Below are positions 1 through 1,227 of a stretch of 1,227 bases of DNA, piece after piece (the stretch's first letter is position 1; each line of letters opens with the position of its first letter). This DNA comes from Escherichia coli (GTDB taxonomy: Bacteria > Pseudomonadota > Gammaproteobacteria > Enterobacterales > Enterobacteriaceae). The DNA lies in the NCBI RefSeq assembly GCF_003334815.1, contig NZ_QOWO01000103.1; one strand, 5' to 3'. Under the pieces are notes generated by a model. That model was not told the DNA's origin. It did not search any database and was given only the letters and a program-made list of their open reading frames with translations. The translations under genes and the position numbers were made by a program.

Positions 1-1038
1 CGCGTCGTAACGCGTCATCAGTTCGTTCAGGCGTTCTTCTTCCGCCTCCGTCAGCACCGCTTCCGGCTCCGGCAGACTGCGGTATGTTCCGGCATCCTCA
101 CGGCACTCACCGACAGGCTCCATGCGTCCGGCGCACCATTCCCAGCCTTCGGCTTCCCGAAGGTGTTCAGCGACAGCCTGGAGTTTTTCCAGCAGGGCAG
201 CATCGAGCGCAACACAGTCCACATAGCCACCCTCGTCGTCGCTGAACAAATCGGTGCGCAGTTCATCTGGCGAGAAGGCATCAGCCCCCACAAAGCGGAA
301 TTTAGTGTTCCCCGCCACCGCCACTTCACTTTCGGTCACCAGACGACGAATGGTCTGTACATCCGGTTTTCCGCCCCATCCCGACTGGCAGGCGGCTTCA
401 AACACCTGCACCTGACGCGCGGTGTCGTTCTCCAGCGCCAGCGCCTGACAGTGCTCTGTGGTGATGCGGTCTTCTGCCAGCGCATCGAGGATGACAGGCG
501 CAAGGTCTGCCAGTTTCAGCATTCGCTGAACGTGGCGGGGCGAATAGCCCAGCAAATCACCGATTTGTGCAGGCGTTTTGCCTTCCTGCGCCATCGCACG
601 GAATCCGGCAATCTGTTCGGCAGGGTGCATATCCCGACGATGACCGTTTTCAGTCATTGATGCGGCAGTCGCCAGCTCCTGCGGAATAACCTTCACGCGT
701 ACAGGCCAGTCAGCCGGAATGATGCCACGCTCTGCCAGCATGTTGAGTGCAGCCAGTCGGCGACCACCTGCGGCGACACCGTAACGGTCACCAGGCAGGG
801 TATGCACGACCAGATTCTGCAGCAGTCCGACGCCCTTAATGGACTCCGCCAGTTCGCTGACGGACTCCGCAGAATACGGCACCGTGCGCACATTCAGCGG
901 TGATTTAATCAGCGAGGCCAGCGGCACGCTCACTTCCTCCGTCTGCGCCAGCAGGGCAGACAGGACAGTTTCCTGCGTTTTTACAGATTTACGGCTTGCT
1001 TTGCGGGTGGTTTCTGGTTCACACTTCGTTACAGGCAT
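1..1038 (-). CDS. ParB-like nuclease-domain protein (ParB/Srx N-terminal domain plus HTH), N-terminal 346 codons; 3' end runs off the window
   Basis: Hand translation of the reverse complement in the frame whose codons occupy + positions 1-3, 4-6, and so on. That + frame has no TTA, CTA or TCA triplet from 1 to 1131, so the minus frame is open from the in-frame stop at 1134..1132 down to the window edge. The first in-frame ATGs are at 1044..1042 and 1038..1036. An AAGGGG Shine-Dalgarno at 1050..1045 sits 6 nt before the ATG at 1038 and directly abuts the ATG at 1044, so 1038 is preferred. The protein has a GGRRLAA motif (residues 91-97, nt 748..768) resembling ParB box II GERRxRA, preceded by LLQNLVVH, and an HTH-like segment TPAQIGDLLGYSPRHVQRMLKL (about nt 511..576). 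The family assignment is from memory of ParB-family motifs, not a database search. Confidence 0.85.
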   Translation of the reverse strand, partial: MPVTKCEPETTRKASRKSVKTQETVLSALLAQTEEVSVPLASLIKSPLNVRTVPYSAESVSELAESIKGVGLLQNLVVHTLPGDRYGVAAGGRRLAALNMLAERGIIPADWPVRVKVIPQELATAASMTENGHRRDMHPAEQIAGFRAMAQEGKTPAQIGDLLGYSPRHVQRMLKLADLAPVILDALAEDRITTEHCQALALENDTARQVQVFEAACQSGWGGKPDVQTIRRLVTESEVAVAGNTKFRFVGADAFSPDELRTDLFSDDEGGYVDCVALDAALLEKLQAVAEHLREAEGWEWCAGRMEPVGECREDAGTYRSLPEPEAVLTEAEEERLNELMTRYDA

Positions 1039-1044
1039 AATCAT

Positions 1045-1050
1045 CCCCTT
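1045..1050 (-). promoter_or_regulatory. Shine-Dalgarno (AAGGGG) for the ParB-like CDS
   Basis: The minus strand reads 5'-AAGGGG-ATGATT-ATG; the purine-rich hexamer lies 6 nt upstream of the ATG at 1038..1036. Confidence 0.5.
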
Positions 1051-1066
1051 ATAATTGCTTATGTCC

Positions 1067-1090
1067 TGCCGGACGTTCGCGCGTCCGGCA
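1067..1090. repeat. Perfect 9-bp inverted repeat TGCCGGACG-N6-CGTCCGGCA (potential stem-loop or operator) in the intergenic spacer
   Basis: Base-by-base check: + 1067-1075 (tgccggacg) is the exact reverse complement of + 1082-1090 (cgtccggca), with a 6-nt spacer ttcgcg. It lies 6 nt after the DUF905-like stop and about 16 nt before the SD of the ParB-like gene. No U/T tract follows it on either strand. Confidence 0.6.
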
Positions 1091-1096
1091 CCTCTC

Positions 1097-1227
1097 TTAC
1101 TTAAGAATCCCGAAATCCCTGATGTACTGGTTCATCCAGTACCCGGCACCGTCCTCAAAATTCCAGGAGCGCCAGATCAACGTGCCATCCTGACGGACAA
1201 CCAGGCGAAAATGCGTTCCCTGATCAT
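1097..1227 (-). CDS. Small DUF905/UPF0401-like protein, C-terminal 42 codons plus stop; 5' end lies outside the window
   Basis: The minus-strand frame with codons at 1225..1223 and onward translates to [42 protein letters not shown], then a TAA stop (+ strand 1097..1099). This resembles my recollection of the E. coli YkfF C-terminus (..DDQGSHFRLVVRD..WRAWNFE..NRYIR..GI..). It is co-directional with, and 58 nt upstream of, the ParB-like start. Only a partial sequence is visible and the family recall is from memory. Confidence 0.6.

Follow-up and report, generated by a model that had tools for sequence, protein, structure and literature searches.

The closest described relative of the protein studied here is HerB, the product of yfjB of the F plasmid, which was characterized and renamed in a preprint of 7 July 2026 (PMC13370423). 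HerB is a dimer of 652-residue chains, each composed of a ParB-type cytidine triphosphate (CTP)-binding domain (D1), a helix-turn-helix (HTH) domain (D2) and two new domains (D3 and D4), with D4 forming the V-shaped core of the dimer; it binds CTPγS, and a crystal structure of D1-D2 with this nucleotide is available (PMC13370423). Here, we analyse a stretch of 1,227 nucleotides from Escherichia coli (contig NZ_QOWO01000103.1 of assembly GCF_003334815.1; "the window" denotes this whole stretch), which carries the 5′ part of a ParB-like gene, the IncI1 orthologue of herB known as yfhA.

HerB forms foci on the nucleoid, for which R94, E130, R168, R172, K175 and D4 are all needed, the R94 mutation abolishing the foci (PMC13370423). 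Chromatin immunoprecipitation (ChIP) places the protein at 156 chromosomal regions that share no motif, with zero signal on F, and about 870 host genes change expression with HerB (PMC13370423). Both the chromosomal foci and the alteration of ~870 host transcripts are also seen with HerB alone, without any plasmid (PMC13370423). Deletion of herB from F leaves conjugation frequency and plasmid positioning unchanged, while the acquisition cost rises by ~10% and the deletion loses in a multi-day competition; the same work raises an "unidentified loading partner" of HerB (PMC13370423). As for its expression, Ssb and YfjA are made transiently in F transconjugants, and no longer so once the region Frpo2 is deleted; YfjB is made in the same burst before the plasmid becomes double-stranded, and herB is silent in established donors (PMC9849209).

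Six-frame translation of the window gives two co-directional genes on the minus strand, both running off the window ends. The larger, at 1-1038 (−), comprises codons 1-346 of 652 (translation, Pfam and the RefSeq coding sequence WP_001145479.1); the full-length genes were taken from pE2863-1 (locus L001), an IncI1 plasmid identical to the window. The complete protein matches Pfam ParB_N at residues 41-131 (E=3e-7) and HTH_ParB at residues 136-222 (E=6e-8), and its PDB matches (Spo0J, ParB and Noc) are limited to residues ~26-220. It is equal in length to F HerB (YfjB, UniProt Q9S4W2) and aligns with it gap-free, 611 of the 652 residues being identical (93.7%; 89% in D1, 96% in D2, 93% in D3 and 96% in D4). 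D1 (residues 1-136; 631-1038, −) consists of the CTP-binding fold of the ParB N-terminal domain, preceded by a disordered tail at the N terminus. Box II, GGRRLAA (residues 91-97; 748-768, −), includes the CTP-binding R94, and Box III, MTENG (residues 128-132; 643-657, −), includes the Mg2+-coordinating E130. A feature spanning 334-630 (−) lies between D1 and D3, and the HTH recognition segment RHVQRMLK (residues 168-175; 514-537, −) carries R168, R172 and K175. Both boxes and all five of these residues are identical in F HerB. The family-specific middle domain D3 is present with its first 109 residues (238-346; 1-327, −), and the remainder of D3 and the D4 dimerization domain fall beyond the window. 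By every sequence-level comparison made, the large gene belongs to the HerB family and is the IncI1 orthologue (yfhA) of F YfjB/HerB, with a CTP-binding pocket that is kept as judged from its residues.

The ratio of nonsynonymous to synonymous substitution rates (dN/dS) between the IncI1 and F genes is 0.14 overall and 0.09-0.20 per domain. Hence, all four domains are under purifying selection. More divergent members of the family were obtained by querying a protein library clustered at 50% identity with residues 238-652, the HerB-specific half; the matches listed by tblastn on plasmids and by a word-indexed protein search were relatives of at least 90% identity, with no divergent members among them. 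At E≤1e-3 the HerB-specific half matches 2209 cluster representatives, 1081 of them at E≤1e-10, and many are 600-720 residues long and 29-55% identical. Across 45 aligned members reaching down to 29% identity, G91, R94 and N131 are invariant and E130 is present in at least 90%; the CTP switch is therefore probably a feature of the whole family. The PDB sequence set that was searched did not include the HerB structures, and the architecture was checked on an AlphaFold2 monomer model built from the 45-member alignment. This model recovers the four-domain fold with a mean predicted local distance difference test score of 85.6, and its low-confidence segments (1-20, 414-422 and 639-652) coincide with the published N-terminal tail, D3-D4 linker and C-terminal tail. 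The last 415 residues show no relationship to the C-terminal domain of any ParB, and no other fold relative of the D3-D4 module was found beyond the HerB family; searches of Pfam, NCBIfam, PHROGs and the PDB returned ParB-type homology only.

More than 50 plasmids of E. coli, Salmonella and E. fergusonii contain the entire window at 100% identity. In PLSDB, at least 5000 records match it at ≥90% identity, 4221 of which are typed as conjugative, and a copy is present in 3359 of 5426 complete E. coli genomes. Among 4736 places in E. coli, 4676 are on plasmids and 60 on chromosomes; the one chromosomal copy that was inspected is an integrated F-like plasmid (L003) with the whole tra operon beside it. 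On pE2863-1, the order on one strand is ssb, DUF905, the ParB-like gene, psiB, psiA, a hypothetical gene and ardA. Upstream are a DNA methylase gene and then a KlcA/ArdB-type antirestriction gene, and downstream are nikA (MobA), the nikB relaxase gene and trbA-C, with nikA/nikB and oriT ~10 kb off. Transcription of the leading-region genes runs towards oriT throughout, the direction that a template role of the transferred strand would predict. The F plasmid has the same ssb-DUF905-ParB-like-psiB block, located between SopAB and oriT/traM. Thus, the window is part of an ssb-DUF905-herB-psiB-psiA operon in the leading region of an IncI1-type conjugative plasmid. This operon goes by the name of the ssi3 operon in IncI plasmids and of the Frpo2 operon in F.

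These flanks bear directly on the sequence-only reading of the window, which had described an orphan ParB-like gene following a small DUF905-like open reading frame (ORF), with no ATPase in sight, and had guessed at a leading-region context. Translation, Pfam and the PDB show both genes to be real, and the guess is borne out by the ssb, psiB, psiA, ardA, KlcA/ArdB-type and nikA/nikB genes around them, as well as by the identical order in F. Six-frame translation reveals no Walker ATPase ORF in the 1227-nt window, which in itself says little because two genes fill its whole length; it is the flanks that give this absence its meaning, and in them neither a canonical parA with parS nearby nor a location in the chromosomal core was found.

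We then consider how the operon may be expressed. A repeat of up to ~500 nt, with in-register blocks of 137-290 nt, is present three times in the IncI1 leading region, upstream of ssb, downstream of ardA and near oriT. These positions correspond to the ssi3, ssi2 and ssi1 layout of IncI plasmids (PMC10104558). The copy upstream of ssb shares an apical core with the region upstream of ssb in F, the Frpo2 of Couturier et al., and its template (transferred) strand folds into a long imperfect hairpin of -107 kcal/mol (z=-9.9 versus shuffles). Rfam gave no match in the 18-kb leading region. In the IncI1 plasmid pESBL, the leading operons are induced early, by up to ~500-fold (PMC12672017). By analogy with F, the IncI1 hairpin is therefore a putative single-strand promoter, a proposal that also leans on older ColIb-P9 work as it is cited in PMC12672017. 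At a plasmid-like contig (L006) where a divergent HerB gene has no ssb upstream, the corresponding region folds into many small stems (z=-2.8), and no single long Frpo-like hairpin is evident.

Two further observations concern repeats. First, the integrated F-like plasmid carries, at 14084-14289 and 19480-19685, short RefSeq pseudogenes labelled "single-stranded DNA-binding protein, frameshifted". One lies just upstream of ssb and the other ~5.4 kb downstream, where Frpo-type repeats are expected, and they seem to result from mis-annotation of the repeats, not from decayed genes. Second, pE2863-1 contains another repeat of 300 nt, distinct from the ssi repeats, in two copies that are 96% identical (17125-17424 and 24072-24371). 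They stand directly upstream of both antirestriction genes, the KlcA/ArdB-like gene at 17463 and ardA at 24409, and for the first copy a long hairpin is likewise predicted in the template strand (-87.8 kcal/mol, z=-4.0). PMC12672017 describes the KlcA and M.EcoGIX operons as having no known promoter, and says that new classes of single-strand promoter were being sought there.

Taken together, we estimate a probability of roughly 80% that the gene is the leading-region HerB orthologue of IncI1 plasmids and that its product acts on the chromosome of the new host and is not a segregation protein. During conjugation, the plus strand of the window would be part of the transferred strand and would serve as template, with the hairpin in the single strand upstream of ssb acting as promoter. 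The operon would be transcribed in a burst before the complementary strand is made, and silenced once the DNA is double-stranded. The 652-residue protein would dimerize through its C-terminal D4, bind CTP in the pocket formed by the ParB-type Boxes II and III, and bind DNA through its HTH. A clamp-like complex would then assemble on the recipient chromosome, not on the plasmid, and its binding would alter host transcription and metabolism for a few generations and so lower the cost of plasmid acquisition. Neither a ParA partner nor a parS site would be involved, and the protein would have no part in segregating the plasmid. The zygotic induction, CTP binding, clamp-like dimer architecture, chromosomal binding, transcriptome and metabolic changes and effect on acquisition cost in this account all come from experiments on the F orthologue, and we infer that the IncI1 protein would behave in the same way. 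The sequence-only reading had likewise favoured an early-acting establishment factor over a segregation protein, which agrees with the published data on the 93.7%-identical F HerB (PMC13370423). Also compatible with this account is the finding for pED208 that a Cre-ParB2 fusion can be translocated through the type IV secretion system, at ~1e-3 per donor (PMC8406263).

Several points weigh against it. The HerB mechanism comes from one non-peer-reviewed preprint, which deals with the F protein and not with the IncI1 protein, and no binding motif was found for HerB (PMC13370423). The promoter activity of the IncI1 hairpin is presumed from homology with F. In pE2863-1, ssb, the first gene of the operon, carries a frameshift annotation (19314-19840); DUF905, herB, psiB and psiA are intact. 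Finally, in the experimental evolution of IncI plasmids by Benz and Hall, loss-of-function mutations in yfhA were selected repeatedly, and a clean yfhA deletion raised the transfer rate in one clinical host and left it unchanged in another (PMC10104558). Since the result differs by host, the net effect of the gene is host-dependent and the gene can be costly. These data are the only direct IncI genetics, and they are opposite in sign to the F result.

The same genetics could be taken to mean that the protein is mainly a negative modulator of conjugative transfer or transfer competence, like Osa or BisD. It was the deletion of yfhA in p1ESBL and p15ESBL that raised transfer, in host strain 15, which together with the recurrent selection of loss-of-function mutations is what such a modulator would lead one to expect. 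Nevertheless, the effect is missing in another host, and yfhA supplied in trans in recipients increased the transfer of the wild-type plasmid (PMC10104558). In F, deletion of herB or of Frpo2 is without effect on conjugation frequency (PMC13370423, PMC9849209), and donors, in which competence for transfer is determined, do not express the gene. The IncI data would be accounted for just as well if reprogramming across the chromosome carried a cost that depends on the host, and we consider the modulator role quite unlikely.

The company that the gene keeps suggests another role, that of an anti-defence or anti-SOS factor that shields the entering DNA, for instance through inhibition of restriction, of CRISPR or of RecA activation. 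Its neighbours include ardA, the KlcA/ArdB-like antirestriction gene, the methylase gene and psiB/psiA, of which the linkage to psiB/psiA is kept down to 38% identity. ParB and DUF905 are among the most abundant leading-region families (PMC11541004 supplement, Samuel et al. 2024), and it has been suggested that a yfhA homologue may be related to anti-defence (PMC10104558). However, no experiment has shown such an activity and no published one was found, the Pfam, NCBIfam, PHROGs and PDB searches gave no homology to an anti-defence family, and PADLOC gave only chance-level matches (E ~0.005), its library being one of defence and not of anti-defence proteins. Deletion of parB2 in pED208 left the mating-induced SOS response unchanged instead of raising it (PMC8406263). 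Furthermore, F transfers at wild-type frequency when herB is deleted, and the foci and ~870 altered transcripts obtained from HerB alone point to a host-directed regulatory role (PMC13370423). The sequence-only reading had offered anti-defence as the other possible function of the protein; this part of it finds no direct support and, with the SOS and transfer-frequency data against it, we regard it as very unlikely.

That the protein is a genuine partition protein, a centromere-binding ParB whose ParA ATPase is encoded elsewhere on the plasmid, is highly improbable and already largely refuted: it does have ParB_N and HTH_ParB, passes the cut-off of the NCBIfam parB_part domain model, bears the RefSeq name "ParB/RepB/Spo0J family partition protein" and shares its plasmid with a ParA gene, but this only ParA of the IncI1 plasmid is encoded ~9 kb upstream on the opposite strand beside a 100-residue partner of its own, F has SopA/SopB besides HerB, the window has no repeat array, the C-terminal 415 residues are unlike any ParB C-terminal domain, deletion of herB from F leaves plasmid positioning unchanged and ChIP finds no HerB on F (PMC13370423), and silence in established donors is incompatible with a role in segregation (PMC9849209).

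The partition locus that the IncI1 plasmid does possess lies at 10083-11008 (−) of pE2863-1. It encodes a ParA of 207 residues (NCBIfam ParA_partition, E=1e-45, just under the cut-off) and, downstream with a 4-nt overlap, an ORF of 100 residues that matches no Pfam or NCBIfam family and presumably specifies a small, uncharacterised centromere-binding protein. The two make up a separate, self-contained small par locus.

Beyond the HerB domains, the window contains the signals for the start of the gene. The ParB-like ORF starts at ATG 1038, which aligns with the start codon of F HerB, and is open to base 1; a Shine-Dalgarno sequence read as AAGGGG is found at 1045-1050 (−), six bases 5′ of this ATG, and a second ATG is present at 1044, two codons upstream. 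In F and in p1ESBL-type copies, an in-frame ATG that overlaps the end of DUF905 occurs 30 codons further upstream (near 11449 in the F-type locus L002) and gives rise to the 682-residue annotations of many database entries. In the window, the codon at this position is AGT (1126-1128, −), and only the 652-residue form is possible. This supports ATG 1038 as the real, conserved start. Scanning the window for promoters and terminators gave only chance-level matches, all on the non-coding plus strand, and no parS-like repeat array is present in it, the single 8-9 bp inverted repeat at 1068-1089 being its only palindrome.

The second gene of the window, at 1097-1227 (−), is the 3′ end of a DUF905/UPF0401 gene (42 codons and TAA; identified by translation, Pfam and the PDB), called yfjA/yubL in F and ykfF in IncI annotations. 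Its stop is separated from the start of the ParB-like gene by a spacer of 58 nt. The full-length protein of 77 residues matches Pfam PF06006 with E=7.8e-36 over model positions 2-69 of 70, matches PDB 2HJJ, the nuclear magnetic resonance structure of E. coli YkfF, with E=4e-22, and is identical to F YfjA at 63 of 77 residues (82%). In F, the DUF905 gene is co-expressed with HerB from Frpo2 (PMC9849209). The DUF905-herB pair is invariant across the spread of E. coli matches and is also found at a locus with a HerB of 55% identity. DUF905 is absent upstream at the loci with HerB of 42%, 38%, 33% and 29% identity; a locus at 31% identity begins at the gene, and its upstream side is not visible. 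The downstream side retains psiB or psiA down to 38% identity, and the more divergent loci are mobile elements with an integrase, ArdC or a reverse transcriptase. An obligate partnership of DUF905 with HerB was considered and rejected on account of this absence at divergent loci and of the foci formed by HerB alone (PMC13370423). Hence, DUF905 is a clade-specific neighbour and not a substitute for ParA, and the sequence-only reading's placing of DUF905 "instead of" a ParA describes its position only.

Between the DUF905 stop and the herB start, RNA folding predicts a stem-loop, the inverted repeat GCCGGACG-CGCGAA-CGTCCGGC at 1068-1089 (−). Its arms, TGCCGGACG and CGTCCGGCA, form a 9-bp stem that is invariant in four loci (L001 20139-20160, L002 11481-11502, L003 15139-15160 and L004 302-322), with four different loops and diverged flanks; the stem is conserved also in one locus whose proteins are only ~55-64% identical. 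It occurs once per locus, only at the DUF905-herB junction, and no T-run follows 3′ of it. The stem could stabilise or process the mRNA and so set the dose of HerB, or it could be a protein-binding palindrome. One may go further and suppose that DUF905, stem-loop and herB form a functional unit in the enterobacterial clade, in which DUF905 modulates HerB or the stem sets the amount of HerB relative to SSB and DUF905; we think this unlikely. DUF905 might, for instance, be the loading partner raised for HerB (PMC13370423), or might act through the interaction between ykfF and yfhA that has been suspected (PMC10104558). If the supposition were true, a HerB dose set by the stem could explain why HerB is of benefit in some hosts and a cost in others.

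Some relatives of HerB were encountered in other settings. In a collection of 50,697 phage records, the D3-D4 module has a single match, MT836029.1 (10092-11288), a 13.7-kb contig from human faeces that is recorded as "Bacteriophage sp." and has no annotation; identity is 28.5% across 93% of the query. PHROGs nevertheless contains a full-length family, phrog_7783 (E=8e-256), of unknown function. At L007 (7001-14504), a member of 33% identity belongs to an element that also encodes a tyrosine integrase and an HTH_3 repressor. Next to this member are genes for a reverse transcriptase (RVT_1), an STM3845-family protein and a KAP NTPase, a defence-island-like neighbourhood, with no ssb, psiB or DUF905 near it. 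The plasmid-like contig L006 (1735-3754 and 7001-10177) carries a ParA-KorB pair and, 3 kb on, a HerB homologue (38%) followed by psiB-psiA. This replicon therefore has two ParB-fold proteins with separate roles, as F does with SopB and HerB.

The system itself is already known. The leading-region location of the gene has been on record since the 1990s, and its function was reported in 2026. What the window adds is that the IncI1 copy retains every functional residue; it does not represent a new system. A large proportion of the IncF and IncI plasmids that carry resistance and virulence genes in Enterobacteriaceae encode HerB-type proteins, through which an incoming plasmid appears to reset the physiology of its new host. 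For annotation, it follows that the RefSeq label "partition protein" is misleading.

Comparison with known systems places the locus as follows. The small upstream gene is clearly homologous to YkfF/YubL (UPF0401, PDB 2HJJ), a group for which no member has a known function. The best NCBIfam match of the ParB-like protein is PRTRC ParB (TIGR03734), likewise a long (~555 residues) ParB-like protein of mobile elements without an adjacent ParA. Membership in that family was rejected, as the score of 71 bits falls below the cut-off of 279 and the alignment is confined to the 160 N-terminal residues. KorB of RK2, Noc and VirB also employ the CTP switch of the ParB fold outside segregation, but HerB is not a member of their families. 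Moreover, KorB, Noc, VirB, PadC and BisD load at defined sites, on their own replicon or on the chromosome, unlike HerB with its ~156 host regions and no motif, and the dimerization module of HerB is unrelated to theirs.

With canonical ParB, Spo0J and SopB, the window protein has in common, from its sequence, the ParB N-terminal CTPase domain and the HTH. It differs from a canonical ParABS system in that there is no adjacent ParA, its neighbours being DUF905 and psiB, and in that the short C-terminal dimerization domain of ParB is absent and the 415-residue D3-D4 module stands in its place. By analogy with F HerB, it would also differ in not binding its own replicon and in being expressed only transiently after transfer.

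The nearest system remains F HerB (YfjB/YubM/"ParB2"). The two differ in backbone, IncI1 with a MOBP nikB relaxase here and IncF there, and by 41 substitutions in the IncI1 copy, which are concentrated in the disordered N-terminal tail. They differ as well in the in-frame upstream ATG (682-residue annotation), which F-like copies have and the IncI1 window lacks, and in the IncI genetics, whose host-dependent effect on transfer rate is opposite in sign (PMC10104558). Common to both are the length of 652 residues, the domains D1-D4, the residues that were mutated in F, the order ssb-DUF905-herB-psiB, the homologous hairpin region upstream of ssb and the conserved stem-loop between DUF905 and herB.

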